A DNA stretch of 64,000 bases, taken from the NCBI GenBank assembly GCA_020852835.1, contig JADZAC010000002.1, positions 246 through 64,245 of the forward strand. Direction: 5' to 3'. Shown here in pieces: positions 3,641 to 56,313 of the stretch. Position 1 is the first letter of the stretch, and every line of letters starts with the position of its first letter. Source of the DNA: Flavobacteriales bacterium. GTDB taxonomy: Bacteria; Bacteroidota; Bacteroidia; Flavobacteriales_F; PHOS-HE28. Below the pieces are notes generated by a model that saw nothing but the letters and a program-made list of their open reading frames with translations, was not told the origin of the DNA and made no database searches. Position numbers and translations under genes: made by a program.

Positions 3641-4660
3641 ATGTTCGCACCGCGATCCCTAAGAGCCTGTGCAGCCGCTGCCTTGTTGCTTTGCTTTACG
3701 CTGAAGCCCGCCTATGGGCAAATGGACCGGGCCGACAGCCTGAAAGCCGTGATCGCGCAGCAGCGCGCCACTTTGGTACTAGCAGACAGCACCCGGGACC
3801 GGCAGGCCGGGTTCGAAGCCAGGATGCACCTGTCGGAACTGGTGGGGCGCAGCGAGGCGATCGCCTTGATGACGCAGGCAGCGGCCCTTGCCGACAGCAT
3901 GGACCGCCCGGACCTGGGTGCGATGGCGCATCGGCTGCTGTCCGGAAAGTGGGCAAGTGCAGGAGCGTTTGAGAAGGCGTATGTGGAAGTGGTTGCGGCT
4001 GATTCCCTGCAAATGCGGAGCGACCGGCGTGAGGCTGAACAGGATGCGGACCTCCGCGCGCGGGAGCTTCAGCGAATGGCGGGGGAACGCGACAGCTTGC
4101 TCCAGGTTTCCGCGGACCGCGACCGGCGCATGGCCCAGGCCATCCACGAGCTGCAGCAACGCACGGATGCCTGGATGTACGGCGCCTTGGCCGCCATGGC
4201 CATTGGCCTGCTTTTGCTGGTAGGCCTCTTGTACCGCCATGGCAGCATCACCGGCAGGTTGCGCGCCACCATTGCCGAGCTGCGCGCGGAAGTGGATGCG
4301 TTGAAAACGCGGGCGGCACGTGCAACGCAGGCACCGCAACCTAGGCCGCAACCGGAGGCGACCCCTGTGGCGGATGCGCTGAACCTCGCCGACGCGGGCA
4401 TGCAGGCCATGGCCGCCGGCAAGTTCCGCCAGGACGGACCCGAACGGTTGGCCACGCTGTTGGACGCCCGCCAGCGCGGCGATCACGACAAGGTGCTGCG
4501 CGTAGTCGCTTCGCTCAAGCCGCAGCTCCTGGGTTTTGATGCCGAGCGCTGCGCACCGCTCATCGCCCGCCTCAGGATCCCGGGCGCAGCCGGGGACCCG
4601 CTGCAATGGAATGCAGACCTCGACGCCTTGGAGGCCGCCGTGCGCGACTTGTTGAAATGA
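3641..4660 (+). CDS. hypothetical signal-peptide protein with one internal TM helix and coiled-coil-like charged regions
   Basis: N-terminal MFAPRSLRACAAAALLLCFTLKPAYGQ signal-like segment. Hydrophobic stretch YGALAAMAIGLLLLVGLLY. Composition is protein-like, unlike the antisense ORF 3779..4696. Confidence 0.5.
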   Translation: MFAPRSLRACAAAALLLCFTLKPAYGQMDRADSLKAVIAQQRATLVLADSTRDRQAGFEARMHLSELVGRSEAIALMTQAAALADSMDRPDLGAMAHRLLSGKWASAGAFEKAYVEVVAADSLQMRSDRREAEQDADLRARELQRMAGERDSLLQVSADRDRRMAQAIHELQQRTDAWMYGALAAMAIGLLLLVGLLYRHGSITGRLRATIAELRAEVDALKTRAARATQAPQPRPQPEATPVADALNLADAGMQAMAAGKFRQDGPERLATLLDARQRGDHDKVLRVVASLKPQLLGFDAERCAPLIARLRIPGAAGDPLQWNADLDALEAAVRDLLK

Positions 4661-4673
4661 TCGGCCCGGGGCC

Positions 4674-5534
4674 TTACCCAACGGTACGGGCACCATGGTC
4701 CCGGAGCAGCCGCATGGCCAGCTCCGGCCGGTCCGTGATCAACCCGTCCACGCCCAAGGCGATCATGCGGCGCATGTCAGCCGCCTCATTCACCGTCCAG
4801 GTCAGCAGGCCCATGCCGCGTGACCGCACTTCGGCCACCACGGCAACATCGATCTGGTGGTGTTCCGGGCTGTAATACGCCGGCGTGAAATCCAGCAGGT
4901 GCAGGTTTTCCGCCATGCTTGCCCTGTTCTCCACCAACAGGGCCAAGGGGATCGAAGGGTCCGTCCGGTGCATTACTTCCAGGATGGCGGGGTCGAAGCT
5001 TTGCACCAGGCAATGCCCGTGCAGGCCGACCACATGGATCTCCTGCACCATGCGCTGCGCGAACACGGCCGGTGATGGCTGATAGGTGCCATACCAAGCA
5101 GGATCGCTTTTTACCTCAATGTTGAAGCGCGGCATGGGCATCGAATTTTCCGCGCACTCCCTGTGAACGTGCGCATGGACTTCGGTGAGCGTCGGCTTCC
5201 AGGTGGCAAAGGCGCCTGCAGGAAGCAGGTGGTAGCGCTGCACTTCCTCCACGGACATCTTGAAGATGTTCGCCGAACGACCTGCCTCCTCGCTCAGTGG
5301 CATCCCTGCGGGGCCGGTGCACGTGGCGGGGTCCATCCATGGTTCATGGCTCACCAGCACTTCGTTATCGCCGGTGATCACCACGTCCATCTCCAGCCAA
5401 TGGCAGCCGGTGCGCGCGGCCTCCAGGAAGGCCTTCACGGAATTGGCCGGGAAGGGGCCGCAACAGCCACGATGGCCATGGACCTCTGTGATCGCGGATG
5501 CATCCATCCTGCCCATCCTGTTCATCCTGTCCAC
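4674..5534 (-). CDS. glycerophosphodiester phosphodiesterase family protein
   Basis: HRG motif (EVHGHRG) and EMDV motif typical of the GDPD family. The start may be one of several Met between 5507 and 5534. Confidence 0.75.
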   Translation of the reverse strand: MDRMNRMGRMDASAITEVHGHRGCCGPFPANSVKAFLEAARTGCHWLEMDVVITGDNEVLVSHEPWMDPATCTGPAGMPLSEEAGRSANIFKMSVEEVQRYHLLPAGAFATWKPTLTEVHAHVHRECAENSMPMPRFNIEVKSDPAWYGTYQPSPAVFAQRMVQEIHVVGLHGHCLVQSFDPAILEVMHRTDPSIPLALLVENRASMAENLHLLDFTPAYYSPEHHQIDVAVVAEVRSRGMGLLTWTVNEAADMRRMIALGVDGLITDRPELAMRLLRDHGARTVG

Positions 5535-50900: not shown

Positions 50901-52147
50901 TGCTGTACCACCTCATCAACTGGCTCCAGCTCACCTTCCCCGGCAGCGGTGTGTTCGGCTACATCAGCTTCCGCGCGGGCATGGCCCTGATCATCTCCCT
51001 GATGATCTCCCTCTGGTGGGGCAAGGGCATCATTCGCCTGCTGCAGCGCAAGCAGGTGGGAGAGATCGTCCGCGACCTCGGCCTGCAGGGCCAGTCGGAG
51101 AAGCAGGGCACGCCCACCATGGGCGGCCTCATCATCATCGCCGGCACCATCGTGCCCACCCTCCTCTTCGCCCGCCTGGACAACGTGTACATCCTGCTGA
51201 TGATGCTCGCCATGCTGTGGCTGGGCACCATCGGGTTCATCGACGATTACATCAAGGTCTTCAAGAAGGACAAGCGCGGGCTGGCGGGAACCTTTAAGGT
51301 GATCGGCCAGGTGGGCATCGGCCTGGTGATCGGCCTTACCGTGTATTTCCATCCCTCCATCCGCACCAAGGTGGAAGTGCCGCAGGTGCTTGCCGAGCAG
51401 TTCGACCCTTCGGAAGTGAGCATGTTCACCGAGGATGACGGCACGGCGCACTACCTGCTGGACCGCAAGCAGCCCAACACCACCATCCCCTTCGTGAAGG
51501 GCAACGAGCTCAACTACTCCTCGGTGATGGGCGTGTTCGGCAGGGAGGCCCGCAAGTACACCTGGGTGCTCTATGTGCTGGTGGTGGTGTTCATCATTAC
51601 CGCCGTGAGCAACGGGGCCAACATCACCGACGGCATCGACGGGCTGGCCGCCGGCACCAGCGCCATCATCGTGCTGGCACTAGGCGTGCTCACCTACATC
51701 GGCGGCAACATCATCTTCTCCCAGTACCTCAACGTGATGTACATCCCCGGCATCGGCGAGCTGGTGGTGTTCATCGGCGCGCTGCTGGGCGCATGCATCG
51801 GGTTCCTCTGGTACAACGCCTATCCCGCCCAGGTCTTCATGGGCGATACCGGCAGCCTGGCCTTGGGCGGCGTGATCGCCGCACTGGCCATCCTGGTGCG
51901 CAAGGAACTGCTGATCCCCGTGCTCTGCGGCGTGTTCCTGGTGGAGAACCTGAGCGTGATGCTCCAAGTATCCTGGTTCAAGTACACGCGCCGCAAGTAC
52001 GGTGAGGGCCGCAGGATCTTCAAGATGTCGCCCCTGCACCACCACTACCAGAAGCTGGGCTACCACGAAAGCAAGATCGTGACCCGCTTCTGGATCGTGG
52101 GCGTGATGCTCGCCGTGGCCACCCTCGTAACCCTGAAACTGCGATGA
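50900..52147 (+). CDS. mraY: phospho-N-acetylmuramoyl-pentapeptide transferase
   Basis: 415 aa with multiple TM helices and MraY motifs (NxxNxxDGxDGL). Confidence 0.92.
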
Positions 52148-53478
52148 ACGAACTGGTGATCTTGGGCGCGCAGGAAAGCGGGGTGGGAGCGGCCGTGCTG
52201 GCGAAAAAGCTGGGCATCCCCGTGTTCGTGAGCGACGCCGGCCTGATCCCCCCGGCCTTCAGCGCGCGCTTGGACGAGGCCGGCATCGCCTATGAGCAAG
52301 GCGGCCACACGGTGAACCGCATATTGGCCGCCGCAGAAGTGGTGAAGAGCCCGGGCATCCCCGAAACCGCTTCGGTGGTGAAGGCCTTGCGCAACAAGGG
52401 CGTGCCGGTGATCGCCGAGGTGGAGTTCGCCGCGCGCCACGTCAACGTGCCCATCATCGGCATCACCGGCAGCAACGGCAAGACCACCACCACCCTGCTG
52501 GTGCACCACATCCTGCGCAAGGCCGGCATGAACGCCGGGCTCGCCGGAAACGTGGGCACCTCCTTCGCCGGGCTGGTGGCCAAGGAACGCCACGACATCC
52601 TGGTGCTTGAGCTGAGCAGCTTCCAATTGGACGGCACGCAAACGCTCAAGCCCCATATCGCCGTGCTCACCAACATCACCCCGGACCACCTGGACCGCTA
52701 CGACAACCGCATGGAGAATTATGTGGACAGCAAGTTCCGCATCACCATGAACCAGGGCCCGGATGACCACTTCATCTACTGCGCCGACGACCCTCAGACC
52801 CGTGAAGGCCTCAAACGCCACAACGTATTGGCGCGCCAATGGCCCTTCTCCATCCGCACCTCCGTGGATCAAGGCGGGTACCTGCAAAACGACCTCCTCC
52901 ACGTCCACACCAACCAATCAACCTTCACCATGAGCATCCTGGAACTCGCCCTGCAAGGCAAGCACAACGTGTACAATTCACTGGCCGCGAGCATTGCCGC
53001 CCGCGTGCTCGATGTGCGCAGCGACGTGGTGCGCGATGCCCTTGCCGATTTCCGCAATGTGGAGCACCGCCTGGAGCGCGTGGGCGTGGTCAACGGCGTG
53101 GAGTTCATCAACGACTCCAAGGCCACCAACGTCAACAGCACCTGGTTCGCACTGGAAAGCATGGAAAAGCCGGTGATCTGGGTGATGGGCGGCGTGGACA
53201 AGGGCAACGACTACAGCGAGCTGCGCGACCTGGCGCGCCGCAAGGTGAAGGCCATCATCTGCCTGGGCGTGGACAACGCCAAGATCATGCAGGCATTTGG
53301 CGACATCGTGGCCGACATCACCGAGGTGGATTCCGCCGAAAAGGCCGTGAACAAAGGTTACGAGCTGGGCGAGCCCGGCGATGTGGTGCTCCTCAGCCCG
53401 GCGTGCGCCAGCTTCGATCTGTTCGAGAACTACGAGGACCGTGGCCGCAAGTTCAAGGCCGCGGTGCGCGCATTGTGA
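52144..53478 (+). CDS. murD: UDP-N-acetylmuramoylalanine--D-glutamate ligase
   Basis: [12 protein letters not shown]-loop. C-terminal [10 protein letters not shown]. Confidence 0.92.
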
Positions 53479-53504
53479 ACCATGGACCAAGGAGCACCCA
53501 GGAC

Positions 53505-53999
53505 ATGAACACCACCAGCACCTCCGACCTGGCGAAGCGCCTGCTGGCCCTGCGCGGTGCCGCAGCAGTTCCGGCAACGCGGCCGGGCGCGGCACCGCGC
53601 ACCGTGGCCATTGCCGGTGTGGAGTACATCGATGACAGCCGCAGCACCTTCCTGGATGCCGCCCTGTTTTCCATCCTCGACCTGGGCAAGCCCCTGGTGT
53701 GGATCGCGGACGCCGCCACGCTCCCGGCCATCGATGGGCGCCTGTTGGCCTTCATGGGCGAACAGGTGGACGCTGCCGTGTTCTACGGTACCCCGGACCC
53801 CGAGAAGGCACAGGCCCTCGGATCCGGACCGGGGTGCGTGTACTTCGCGGACAGCCTGCGCACAGCCGTCTTCACGGCCCGTGAACTGGCAGTGCCCGGT
53901 GGCCGGGTGCTGTTCAGCCCCGCCTGCCCCGCCACCTGCGGCCTGGCCAACCAGGCCGAACGCAGCGCCGAGTTCAGGCGCGCATTGAACGATCTCTGA
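53505..53999 (+). CDS. orphan ORF homologous only to the C-terminal domain of MurD (Mur-ligase C-domain paralog; possible degenerate duplication or pseudogene)
   Basis: By eye it aligns to the murD C-terminus: GVEYIDDSRST vs [11 protein letters not shown]; KPLVWIA vs KPVIWVM; PGGRVLFSPACPATCG vs [15 protein letters not shown]. There is no N-terminal or central ATP-binding domain. Occupies the 545-nt gap between murD and ftsW. Confidence 0.6.
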   Translation: MNTTSTSDLAKRLLALRGAAAVPATRPGAAPRTVAIAGVEYIDDSRSTFLDAALFSILDLGKPLVWIADAATLPAIDGRLLAFMGEQVDAAVFYGTPDPEKAQALGSGPGCVYFADSLRTAVFTARELAVPGGRVLFSPACPATCGLANQAERSAEFRRALNDL

Positions 54000-54023
54000 C
54001 CGACGAGTGAAGCGCGCACGGCC

Positions 54024-55202
54024 ATGAACCAACTCCTCGACCGCCACCTGAAAGGCGACCGCACCATCTGGGTGGTGGCCCTGCTGTTGGGCATCACCAG
54101 CCTGTTGGCCGTGTACAGCGCTTCCTCCTGGATGGGCTGGCGGGACCATGGCGGAACCTTCCGGATCTTGGTCAAGCATGCCCTGATGCTGGCCGGCGCG
54201 GGCGGGATCATGTACGCCTCCAGCCGCCTGCGCTACACCGTTTATTCCAAGCTGGCGCAGATCTTCCTTTGGGCTACCGTGGCCTTGCTGGTGCTCACCC
54301 TGCTCATCGGCACCAATGTGAACGGTGCCTCGCGCTGGTTGGCCATTCCGGGCGTGGGCATCACCTTCCAGACCAGTGACCTGGCGCGGGTGGTGATCAT
54401 TGCGTACCTGGCACGTGTACTGGGCCGGCAGCATGATGAGCCATGGACCTTCCGCGACGTGCTGCTGCGCTTGCTGTTGCCCGTGGGTGCCGTGTGCGGG
54501 GCCATCCTTCCGGCCAACTTCTCCACGGCCGCCCTCTTGCTGGCCACCTGCATGGTGCTGATGTTCATCGGCCGGGTGCCCGTGAAGCACCTCCTGGGCA
54601 TCTGCGGCATGGCGGCCTCCGCTTTCGGCCTGTTGCTGCTGCTCTCCAAGGCCAATCCCGATCTGTTGCCCCGCCTGCAAACCTGGCAATCCCGTCTGGA
54701 GAACCACGGGGGCAGCGACCGCGACGCCAACTACCAGGTGAACAAGGCCAAGATCGCCATTGTGCACGGCGGATTCCTGCCGAACGGCCCGGGCACCGGC
54801 ACCTCGCGCAACTACATGCCCCATCCGGAAAGCGACATGATCTACGCCTTCATCATCGAAGAGTACGGCTCCATCCTGGGCGGGTTGGGCCTGCTGTTGC
54901 TTTACCTCATCCTGCTCTCGCGCGCCATGCGCATCGCCAACCGCTGCGACAGGCCCTTCGGCTCGCTGGTGGCCGTCGGCCTGGCGTTGAGCCTGGTGAT
55001 GCAAGCCTTGGTGAACATGGCCGTGGGCGTGAACCTGGTGCCCGTTACCGGCCAGCCGCTGCCGCTGGTGAGCATGGGCGGCACCAGCATGTGGTTCACC
55101 TGCTTGTCCATCGGCATCATCCTCAGCGTGAGCCGCAGCGTGTACGACGCGCAGGCCGCTGCCAAGAGCGAACGCCCCGCAACCACTGCCCATGCAGCCT
55201 AG
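54024..55202 (+). CDS. ftsW: FtsW (SEDS-family peptidoglycan glycosyltransferase/lipid II flippase)
   Basis: 392 aa with 10 TM helices. SEDS motifs. Confidence 0.9.
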   Translation: MNQLLDRHLKGDRTIWVVALLLGITSLLAVYSASSWMGWRDHGGTFRILVKHALMLAGAGGIMYASSRLRYTVYSKLAQIFLWATVALLVLTLLIGTNVNGASRWLAIPGVGITFQTSDLARVVIIAYLARVLGRQHDEPWTFRDVLLRLLLPVGAVCGAILPANFSTAALLLATCMVLMFIGRVPVKHLLGICGMAASAFGLLLLLSKANPDLLPRLQTWQSRLENHGGSDRDANYQVNKAKIAIVHGGFLPNGPGTGTSRNYMPHPESDMIYAFIIEEYGSILGGLGLLLLYLILLSRAMRIANRCDRPFGSLVAVGLALSLVMQALVNMAVGVNLVPVTGQPLPLVSMGGTSMWFTCLSIGIILSVSRSVYDAQAAAKSERPATTAHAA

Positions 55203-56313
55203 GATCTTGATCAGCGGAGGAGGCACGGGCGGGCACATCTTCCCGGCCATCGCCATTGCCGATGCACTCAAGCAGCGGGTGCCCGATGCCCGTTTCCTCT
55301 TCGTGGGTGCCGAGGGCAAGATGGAGATGGAGAAGGTGCCTGCTGCGGGGTATGCCATTACGGGCCTGCCCGTACGCGGCTTCCAGCGCGGGGCGCCGTG
55401 GAAGAACATCGGGCTGCCTTGGCGGCTGCTGCGCAGCATGTGGCAGGCCCGGCGCATCGTGCGCACCTTCAGGCCGCACGTGGCCGTGGGCGTGGGCGGC
55501 TATGCCAGCGGGCCGGTGCTGGCCGCGGCACAGCGCGCGGGCGTGCCCACGCTCATCCAGGAGCAGAACAGCCATGCCGGTGCCACCAACCGCCTGCTGG
55601 CCAAACGGGCTGCCTCCATCTGCGTGGCCTATGCCGGCATGGAGCGCTATTTCCCCAAGGATAAGATCCGCCTCACCGGCAACCCCGTACGGCAGGACAT
55701 GGTGCGCCTGGCCGGCAAACGGCCCATCGGGCTCGGGCATTTCCAATTGCGGGGGGATGCGCCCGTGGTGCTCGTTACCGGCGGAAGCCTGGGCGCGCGC
55801 GGCATCAACCTGGGCATCGAGGCCGCCTTGGAGCAGTTGCGCGATGCGGGCGTGCAGCTCATCTGGCAAACCGGCGGCCCGTTCCACAGCAAGGCCCTGG
55901 AAGCCGTTCGCCGCACCGGCTTTGCCGATGCCCGTGTGCCGGCCTTCATCGACCGCATGGACCTGGCCTATGCCGTGGCCGATGTGGTGGTGGCCCGCGC
56001 CGGTGCCATCAGCGTAAGCGAGCTCTGCCTCACCCAACGGCCTGCCATCCTGGTGCCGCTGCCCACGGCCGCCGAAGACCACCAGACCAGCAATGCGCGC
56101 GCCCTGGCCGAGCGCGGCGCTGCGGTGCTGGTGAAGGATGCGGATGCCGCGGCCAGGCTCGGCGGCGAGATCTTGCGCCTGGTCGCCGACCCTGCGGAAC
56201 GCGATCGCCTGCGCACGGCCATGGCCGCAATGGGCATGGACAATGCGGCGGAGGCCATTGCTGCGGAGGTGCTCCGTTTGGCCGCATTCAACCCCATCGC
56301 CAATCCCCAGTGA
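55192..56313 (+). CDS. murG: undecaprenyldiphospho-muramoylpentapeptide beta-N-acetylglucosaminyltransferase
   Basis: GGTGGH N-terminal motif. GT28 family. Confidence 0.92.
   Translation: MQPRILISGGGTGGHIFPAIAIADALKQRVPDARFLFVGAEGKMEMEKVPAAGYAITGLPVRGFQRGAPWKNIGLPWRLLRSMWQARRIVRTFRPHVAVGVGGYASGPVLAAAQRAGVPTLIQEQNSHAGATNRLLAKRAASICVAYAGMERYFPKDKIRLTGNPVRQDMVRLAGKRPIGLGHFQLRGDAPVVLVTGGSLGARGINLGIEAALEQLRDAGVQLIWQTGGPFHSKALEAVRRTGFADARVPAFIDRMDLAYAVADVVVARAGAISVSELCLTQRPAILVPLPTAAEDHQTSNARALAERGAAVLVKDADAAARLGGEILRLVADPAERDRLRTAMAAMGMDNAAEAIAAEVLRLAAFNPIANPQ

Follow-up and report, generated by a model that had tools for sequence, protein, structure and literature searches.

The window analysed here is a 64,000-nt stretch of contig JADZAC010000002.1 (positions 246 to 64,245) from assembly GCA_020852835.1 of a Flavobacteriales bacterium, and it contains a dcw gene cluster in which an additional open reading frame (ORF) lies on the forward strand between murD and ftsW. 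We refer to the 164-aa product of this ORF (53505..53999) as X. The murD gene stops with a TGA at 53478 and ftsW starts at 54024, and a first-pass annotation of this DNA had pointed to the intervening gap of 545 nt as holding a 164-aa frame. These coordinates were borne out, as the frame opens with an ATG at 53505, runs for 164 codons, and closes with a TGA at 53997-53999, and the encoded protein has a computed mass of 17.1 kDa and an isoelectric point of 5.1. The G+C content at third codon positions (GC3) is 0.835 in the frame of X and 0.84-0.93 in the neighbouring genes, while the two shifted frames of X have values of 0.69 and 0.56. The upstream MurD matched MurD-like_N, Mur_ligase_M, and Mur_ligase_C in Pfam, and its own C-terminal domain is intact. 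Two long mechanical ORFs of 386 aa (52839-53999, +) and 678 aa (53430-55466, -) overlap murD, X, and ftsW, but ORFs of this kind are typical of DNA with 63% GC and we saw no gene-like signs in them. The 386-aa frame was considered as the gene of X and rejected, as its 5' part is merely an open alternative frame over murD and the orthologs start at the equivalent of the ATG at 53505. An Rfam scan of the window (1-64000) gave nothing at gathering score, and therefore no known RNA element in the murD-ftsW gap.

To characterize X, we compared it with the adjacent MurD by BLASTP and found that residues 32-161 of X align with residues 312-441 of MurD, with 28% identity and 47% positives (E=1e-16 for this single comparison over 130 residues). 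The first-pass annotation had aligned X by eye to the last ~135 residues of MurD, and the 130 ungapped residues recovered by BLASTP agree with this; the three motif pairs that it had quoted all fall inside the alignment. Profile methods gave the same result. The NCBIfam model for murD (TIGR01087) matched X with E=5e-14 over model positions 314-439 of 441 only, and the score of 52.2 bits is far below the equivalog cutoff of 211.95 that marks a MurD enzyme. A profile of the X family matched only MurD chains in the PDB, the best being 7sy9 (E=4e-19, chain residues 301-447). The Pfam model for the Mur-ligase C-terminal domain (PF02875, Mur_ligase_C) matched X itself below threshold, at 13.9 bits (E=0.097) against a gathering cutoff of 28.4, while a precomputed PF02875 match is carried by more MurD-like members of the family. 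We did not find any match to MurD-like_N or Mur_ligase_M in X, and the P-loop (GxxGKT) is absent from the 164-aa sequence, which is consistent with the earlier remark that X has neither a P-loop nor a central domain. An AlphaFold2 (AF2) model built with 51 homologs showed an alpha/beta domain with a predicted local distance difference test (pLDDT) score of 79.8 and a predicted template modelling (pTM) score of 0.78, and the top Foldseek matches of this model are all MurD C-terminal domains (7sy9, E=5e-7, query TM-score (TMq) 0.67, probability 1.00). By homology and by fold, X thus belongs to the Mur-ligase C-terminal alpha/beta domains. Because the BLASTP, TIGR01087, PDB profile, and AF2/Foldseek matches agree, we identify X as a copy of the entire MurD C-terminal domain, together with the inter-domain linker before it and the final helix of the central domain (Table 1). 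X is not a MurD enzyme by score, domain content, or key residues.

Table 1. Features of the murD-ftsW junction in the window (dN/dS, ratio of nonsynonymous to synonymous substitution rates; residue numbers in the first column are those of X)
Feature	Coordinates	Strand	Remarks
murD	52144..53478	+	TIGR01087, 406.7 bits (cutoff 211.95), residues 5-442
murD-X spacer, 26 nt	53479..53504	+	AAGGAG at 53489-53494, with the ATG 10 nt downstream; candidate ribosome-binding role
X, paralog of the MurD linker and C-terminal domain, separate cistron	53505..53999	+	Homology, fold, synteny, dN/dS, GC3
N-terminal helix of X, residues 8-19, DLAKRLLALRGA	53526..53561	+	DSSP on the model; homologous to the final central-domain helix of MurD
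DDSRST motif of X, residues 43-48	53631..53648	+	Equivalent to MurD NDSKAT; Asp317 and Thr321 kept, Lys319 replaced by Arg
WIADAATLPAID, residues 66-77	53700..53735	+	Degenerate MurD W-x-x-GGxDKGNDY loop; Leu73 at the Lys348 site
LRTAVFTARELAVPGGRVLFSPACPA, residues 118-143	53856..53933	+	Helix, strand, and SPAC; most conserved block; pLDDT 91-95
C-terminal helix of X, residues 148-164, ANQAERSAEFRRALNDL	53946..53996	+	Equivalent to MurD NYExRGxxFKxAV; Gln150 at the Phe422 site
ftsW, 392 aa	54024..55202	+	Starts 24 nt past the X stop; invariable downstream neighbour

A search of 5.8 billion proteins recovered 52 homologs of X, all of which are stand-alone proteins of 124-175 aa with 37-93% identity. 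We also scanned GTDB, with one genome per species, using patterns that are specific to a high-GC subgroup of the family (tier 1); 85 stretches were found to encode a relative of X, and 80 of them were fetched as loci. All listed GTDB records with X are metagenome-assembled genomes (MAGs) of uncultured Flavobacteriales or Bacteroidota, and many of their names point to activated sludge and lakes. X lies between murD and ftsW in 88/88 related loci (L001-L088), and its ORF is intact, at 158-177 aa, in 87 of them, while the start is missing from L072, which is cut off by a contig end. The distance from the murD stop to the start of X ranges from -4 to 44 nt, with no conserved sequence in this spacer; the exception is L056, which has a fragmentary murD match and a gap that reads 531 nt. 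Downstream of X, ftsW is present in every locus that reaches far enough. Most loci have the ftsW start 5-30 nt past the X stop, while the two genes of L006-L008 share 4 nt. In L038, L040, L047, L055, L057, L060, L062, L065, L071, L074, and L033 this distance is 100-250 nt, and in the MAG locus L039 a 152-aa ORF (4532-4990) is inserted between an intact X and ftsW, giving a gap of 567 nt. By its sequence, this inserted ORF may be of the "four-helix-bundle / 23S rRNA intervening-sequence protein" type.

All three frames of X relative to murD occur among these loci, and the gaps vary as well; X is an independent cistron. A frameshift or read-through extension of MurD was rejected on the same grounds, together with the presence of an individual ATG in each ortholog and of intervening stop codons. 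Complementation of a defective MurD was also considered and rejected, as the upstream MurD is complete and its C-terminal domain motifs are conserved. We estimated selection on X with Nei-Gojobori dN/dS in close pairs only, as distant pairs give omega values of 0.5-1.3 with dS saturated under the strong GC3 bias. In these close pairs dN/dS is 0.04-0.28 for X, and most of them give 0.02-0.14 for the MurD C-terminal domain. Distances between pairs of X proteins are correlated with those between the MurDs (r=0.73), with X evolving at 2.1-2.4 times the rate of MurD, which fits vertical co-inheritance under a constraint that is weaker yet real. In one case (P0037, from L001) the adjacent MurD is 88% identical to that of the window, and X is merely 48% identical. 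The presence of X in relatives and its dN/dS, which the first-pass annotation had singled out as checks, show that X is a conserved protein-coding gene forming a separate cistron.

One suggestion of the first-pass annotation had been a pseudogene-like relic of a tandem duplication, and a chance ORF in GC-rich DNA would be a related explanation. X does evolve faster than MurD, it has lost substrate-binding residues (discussed below), and long spurious ORFs are frequent in the high-GC DNA of this region. However, the ORF is intact and constant in length and position in all 87 fully readable loci and in distant low-GC relatives, dN/dS is well under 1, the C-terminal third is conserved like that of MurD, and the GC3 pattern is frame-specific. 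The relic is refuted by the intact ORFs, the fixed murD-ftsW slot, the dN/dS values, and the distant low-GC relatives, and the chance ORF is ruled out by frame-specific GC3 together with low-GC homologs; we regard either explanation as hardly credible. It is also conceivable that only the translation of the ORF matters, with X serving as a spacer or a device of translational coupling that sets the level of FtsW and with a dispensable protein product. The position of X directly upstream of ftsW in every locus that reaches far enough and the short distances between the two genes, including the 4-nt overlaps, would suit this idea, and in E. coli the amount of FtsW produced is 20-25% of that of the Mur proteins (PMC10214165). 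But the constraint acts at the amino-acid level, as seen in the dN/dS values, invariant motifs, and a foldable domain, and X is kept in several loci where 100-570 nt separate it from ftsW, including L039 with its extra ORF. This makes coupling alone a very improbable explanation.

The family extends beyond the high-GC subgroup. An exhaustive hidden Markov model (HMM) search of 1.8 billion cluster representatives revealed a second tier of stand-alone proteins of 163-190 aa from low-GC organisms, which are named [quoted passage not shown] or "hypothetical protein" (Flavobacteriales/Crocinitomicaceae) at NCBI and labelled MurD by the Joint Genome Institute (JGI). In 4/4 second-tier contexts that were checked (P0067, P0259, P0088, and P0082) an intact murD (437-447 aa) is followed by X, with ftsW next wherever the contig reaches; the P0088 contig stops just past X. 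Beyond L001-L088, the loci that show the murD-X-ftsW layout are L089-L091, L094, and L099, together with L098, whose contig ends after X. The X of the window fits this family layout (160-190 aa, after an intact murD and before ftsW) with its 164 aa and its spacings of 26 nt and 24 nt. Members of the low-GC tier keep HRLE and NDSKAT nearly as in MurD, and Lys348 is usually lost. In a neighbour-joining (NJ) tree of the C-terminal domain region, the high-GC X proteins are monophyletic and nested in the low-GC ones, beside Bacteroidota-type MurD C-terminal domains, and the true MurD C-terminal domains of X-carrying genomes form a separate clade, although the branches are long and the tree is indicative only. 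When compared with E. coli MurD, X and the MurDs of the clade have in common a deletion of residues 334-335, a 3-residue insertion after 385, and Trp341. These shared indels and the position of X in the tree support an origin from the local murD. The simplest history is a single old tandem duplication in an ancestor of a group of Flavobacteriales, which copied the part of murD between the final central-domain helix and the stop codon; X was afterwards inherited with the dcw cluster while diverging. The same two lines of evidence support what the first-pass annotation had proposed in this respect, namely a partial duplication of the murD 3' end and a domesticated stand-alone Mur-ligase C-terminal domain.

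Some database entries mimic stand-alone C-terminal domain genes. These are 182 aa long, start with MSI(H/Y)DLALQGKHN, and contain GGVDKGNDY, and their start corresponds to a Met conserved in these MurDs at about residue 263. One of them, P0297 (L093 4345-5549), was tried as a member of the X family and rejected, as it represents the C-terminal part of a genuine MurD, in an assembly that is frameshifted and in which mraY is also split. All sequences of this type were left out of the family, with the context seen for L093. P0207, P0212, P0214, and P0215 bear the same signature as P0297, and P0215 is named "cyanophycin synthetase, partial" at NCBI. In L095/L096 the murD slot holds a 182-aa C-terminal domain gene only (P0106, 5001-5549), with mraY ending at 4999 and ftsW next, so that the slot is too small for a full murD. 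This organism is metagenomic and was found in 34 index blocks, with a longest contig of 50-200 kb, and P0106 carries Arg in place of both Lys319 and Lys348, together with IQ in place of HN. The murD of this organism has either been split or relocated, or is reduced to a remnant.

To see which functional residues X retains, we prepared column profiles from 84 non-redundant high-GC (tier-1) X sequences and used the literature numbering of E. coli MurD, whose sequence was verified against PDB 8v8w. In the C-terminal domain of MurD, ADP is contacted by Arg302 and Asp317, while D-Glu is contacted by Thr321, Lys348, Ser415, Leu416, and Phe422, with Lys348 pairing with the alpha-carboxylate (PMC9780078). 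Among the X sequences, Asp317 and Thr321 are each kept in 99%, Ser318 in 95%, Arg425 in 98%, His301 and Ser415 in 90% each, Arg302 in 56%, and Ser410-Pro411-Ala412-Cys413 in 94-100%, while position 422 is Tyr or Phe in 76% and position 319 is Arg in 80% and Lys in 10%. At the site of Lys348, the four commonest residues are Ala (27%), Asp (25%), Glu (11%), and Val (8%), with no Lys among them, whereas the same column in the MurDs of the clade is Lys in 84% and His in 16%. The Gly-Asn-Asp-Tyr that follows (E. coli 349-352) is variable in X but 94-100% conserved in clade MurDs, and the GGxDK loop with Lys348 is lost across the 84 high-GC X sequences and usually lost in the wider tier. Changes at position 348 also occur in full-length MurDs, with Lys348 replaced by His (GGEEHGNDY) in L003, L004, L044, L055, L058, L059, L064, L065, L070, L071, L074, and L080, and by Asp, Ala, or Asn in P0097, P0104, and P0124. 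The MurDs of these 12 loci and 3 proteins have a correlated change of Ala414 to Lys (SPACKSFD), and the Lys may have been relocated within the pocket.

The X of the window has Gly28/Ala29 at the His301/Arg302 sites, Leu73 at Lys348, Ala143 at Ser415, Thr144 at Leu416, and Gln150 at Phe422. It retains Asp44 (Asp317) and Thr48 (Thr321), and it thus lacks most of the D-Glu and ADP residues found in MurD. Of the family motifs, it keeps R17, D43-D-S-R-S-T48, W66, V135-L-F-S-P-A-C141, E152-R, and F157, with Ser following E152-R where the family has Gly. By these residues, the X of the window is among the most derived members of the family. Its suggested role in binding the amino acid or competing for substrate finds no support, as the Lys348 loop and the equivalents of Ser415, Leu416, Phe422, His301, and Arg302 are gone.

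Conservation is distributed unevenly along X. Residues 117-164 (LRTAVFTARELAVPGGRVLFSPACP...AERSAEFRRALNDL) have a mean top-residue frequency of 0.82-0.85, compared with 0.80-0.90 in MurD; within this part, the values are 0.82 against 0.80 for residues 117-142 and 0.85 against 0.90 for the C-terminal helix. F123, A125, E127, L128, A129, L136, and P139 are invariant, and Arg17, the equivalent of MurD Arg289, is Arg in 100% of X and in 99% of the clade MurDs. Residues 70-116, which include the Lys348 loop, are relaxed (0.37-0.55), and columns 344-356 are the least conserved part of X. Selection is concentrated on two parts, the C-terminal third (LRTAVFxARELAxxGxxVLFSPACP...AExxRAVxDL) and the DDSRSTFLDA segment. 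In addition, Phe322, Asp324, Leu327, Arg391, Phe395, Arg398, Glu399, Phe409, Pro414, and Gly416 have become newly fixed in the high-GC X proteins, which looks like new constraint and not decay. P0037, P0039, and P0062 have lost DSRST and SPAC (P0037 has MELSAGAT and FCPDGP) while keeping the LRTAVFxARELA helix and an intact ORF.

This pattern bears on two further explanations. The first is that X binds a small molecule through the former cleft and would serve as a precursor sensor, buffer, or competitor. Nucleotides, UDP-MurNAc-peptides, and amino acids apart from free D-Glu would be examples of such ligands. Cleft residues are among the best kept in the family (Asp317, Ser318, Thr321, SPAC, Ser415, Tyr/Phe422, and His301), and the almost MurD-like HRLE and NDSKAT motifs of the low-GC tier would make such a role more plausible for those members. 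However, in MurD it is mainly the two domains absent from X, the N-terminal and the central one, that form the sites for ATP and for UDP-MurNAc-L-Ala (UMA). Lys348 and its loop are gone as described above, the X of the window lacks the counterparts of His301, Arg302, Ser415, Leu416, and Phe422 as well, and P0037 and P0039 have dropped DSRST and SPAC with the gene retained. We therefore consider small-molecule binding rather unlikely. The second explanation is that X is a trans-acting catalytic module that docks on the N-terminal and central domains of MurD or another Mur-type enzyme and gives it a second amino-acid specificity, as in a split enzyme. X begins exactly at the last central-domain helix and the linker, the family keeps the HR/DS(K/R)xT face that closes over the ATP site, and the lone 182-aa C-terminal domain in the murD slot of L095/L096 hints that a free C-terminal domain is tolerated or useful. 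Yet the adjacent MurD is complete with a conserved C-terminal domain, so that a free copy must compete with a tethered one, and we did not see any partner without a C-terminal domain. The amino-acid pocket is variable (columns 344-356) and has not been remodelled to a new conserved state, and Arg302 is absent from the X of the window. A catalytic role in trans is thus improbable.

X keeps the fold of a MurD C-terminal domain and is not a ligase by itself. Because the N-terminal and ATPase domains and the ligand residues have been lost while selection remains on the C-terminal third, we favour the reading that X is a domesticated, non-catalytic mimic or adaptor derived from the MurD C-terminal domain, which would make protein contacts in the Mur-ligase and divisome machinery. 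Judging from sequence and predicted structure, we would assign this reading, variants included, a probability of about 0.5. X would be produced from the same operon, in which the final cytoplasmic ligase gene of the block precedes it and ftsW follows, and would act by protein-protein contact within the machinery for peptidoglycan precursors and division. It could do so as a mimic of the MurD C-terminal domain that docks on a Mur-ligase partner, or as an adaptor that joins the cytoplasmic Mur enzymes to FtsW, MurG, or MraY, in which case it would tune or localise the septal precursor supply. A regulatory or adaptor role appears plausible; in its most specific form, which is a tentative one, the proposal makes X a dedicated subunit with such a function. 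This subunit would bind a Mur ligase or else FtsW, MurG, or MraY, and would couple the cytoplasmic synthesis of precursors to the septal peptidoglycan polymerase. Several points weigh against a role in protein contacts. The conserved Asp317, Ser318, Thr321, SPAC, and Arg425 line the substrate cleft of MurD, and a conserved cleft would allow a small-molecule ligand, especially in members with HRLE, NDSKAT, Ser415, and Tyr422. The loss of DSRST and SPAC in P0037, P0039, and P0062 indicates that the constrained surface is not uniform across the family. Finally, every carrier of X that we saw is an uncultured MAG or a metagenome contig.

In full-text searches of the literature we did not find any description of a stand-alone MurD C-terminal domain or of a Bacteroidota gene located between murD and ftsW. 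The identity of X as a free-standing, apparently non-catalytic Mur-ligase C-terminal domain fixed in the dcw cluster is solid, and its mode of action is what we infer. X belongs to an uncurated family whose members are labelled "hypothetical", "glutamate ligase domain-containing" or, wrongly, "MurD", and a specific family model would mend the annotation of these proteins in automated pipelines. The question of a Mur-ligase complex, and of how precursor supply is coupled to the divisome, has so far been argued mainly from gene order, natural fusions, and micromolar affinities in vitro (PMC10214165). X is a concrete test object for this question, and one that may be somewhat surprising to cell-wall specialists: a lineage retains an isolated extra Mur-ligase domain, under purifying selection, at the junction of murD, which encodes a cytoplasmic enzyme, and ftsW, which encodes a membrane protein. 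If X binds a partner, it would mark a directly testable interaction surface of MurD or FtsW; ligand binding, on the other hand, would make it a new precursor sensor. If the adaptor reading is true, X would be a free-standing "pseudo-domain" regulator, the first of its kind to be described among the Mur ligases, and would provide a natural handle on the long-postulated complex of Mur enzymes.

Among known systems, the closest comparison is with MurD itself. X and the MurD C-terminal domain are homologous over this domain and the preceding linker and helix (E. coli about 278-437), with the same predicted fold, and they share (N/D)DSxxT, SPAC, NxxERG..F, and, with the local MurDs, Trp341 and the indels. 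In contrast to MurD, X is a stand-alone protein of 164 aa without a UDP-binding or ATPase domain, its GGxDK (Lys348) loop is degenerate, the X of the window replaces the equivalents of His301, Arg302, Ser415, Leu416, and Phe422, and its rate of evolution is about 2x that of MurD. The proteins from MAGs of Salibacteraceae, Crocinitomicaceae, and other Flavobacteriales (such as P0067, P0259, and MBT4774497.1) resemble X in length (163-190 aa), in their position after murD, and in the usual loss of Lys348, and they form one clade with the group of the window in the NJ tree. They are nearer to MurD than the X of the window is, as they have kept HRLE, NDSKAT, Trp327, and the EAV helix. When compared with these low-GC members, the high-GC subgroup of the window is a strongly derived branch (STFLDA, LRTAVFxARELA, and ACPSG).

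More distant parallels come from the Foldseek neighbours of X and from natural fusions, and we count them in favour of a role in protein contacts, as precedents in which Mur-ligase C-terminal domains or homologs serve as contact modules. MurT of the MurT/GatD complex (PDB 6gs2 and 6h5e) appears at ranks 39-40 as a weak match (E about 4e-3), and its C-terminal domain is a Mur-ligase-type domain that mainly holds the partner GatD rather than the incoming amino acid. Unlike X, this domain remains attached to the central domain of a Mur ligase and contributes to catalysis, and no gene for a GatD-like partner adjoins X. Chains of the plastid-encoded RNA polymerase (8qma_O, 8r6s_Q, and 9epc_Q) are found at ranks 31, 37, and 48. 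These chains are the MurE-like PAP11, a homolog of Mur ligases that has been retained as a structural subunit without enzymatic function. PAP11 is eukaryotic, is a full-length Mur-ligase homolog, and belongs to an unrelated complex, so that it is an analogy to X and not a relative. With regard to the neighbouring genes of X, natural MurD-FtsW chimeras exist in which the C-terminus of MurD is sometimes joined to FtsW, and the C-terminal region of Mur ligases can form a protein-protein interface (PMC10214165). Those fusions join complete enzymes, whereas X is an extra, isolated domain without any fusion partner.

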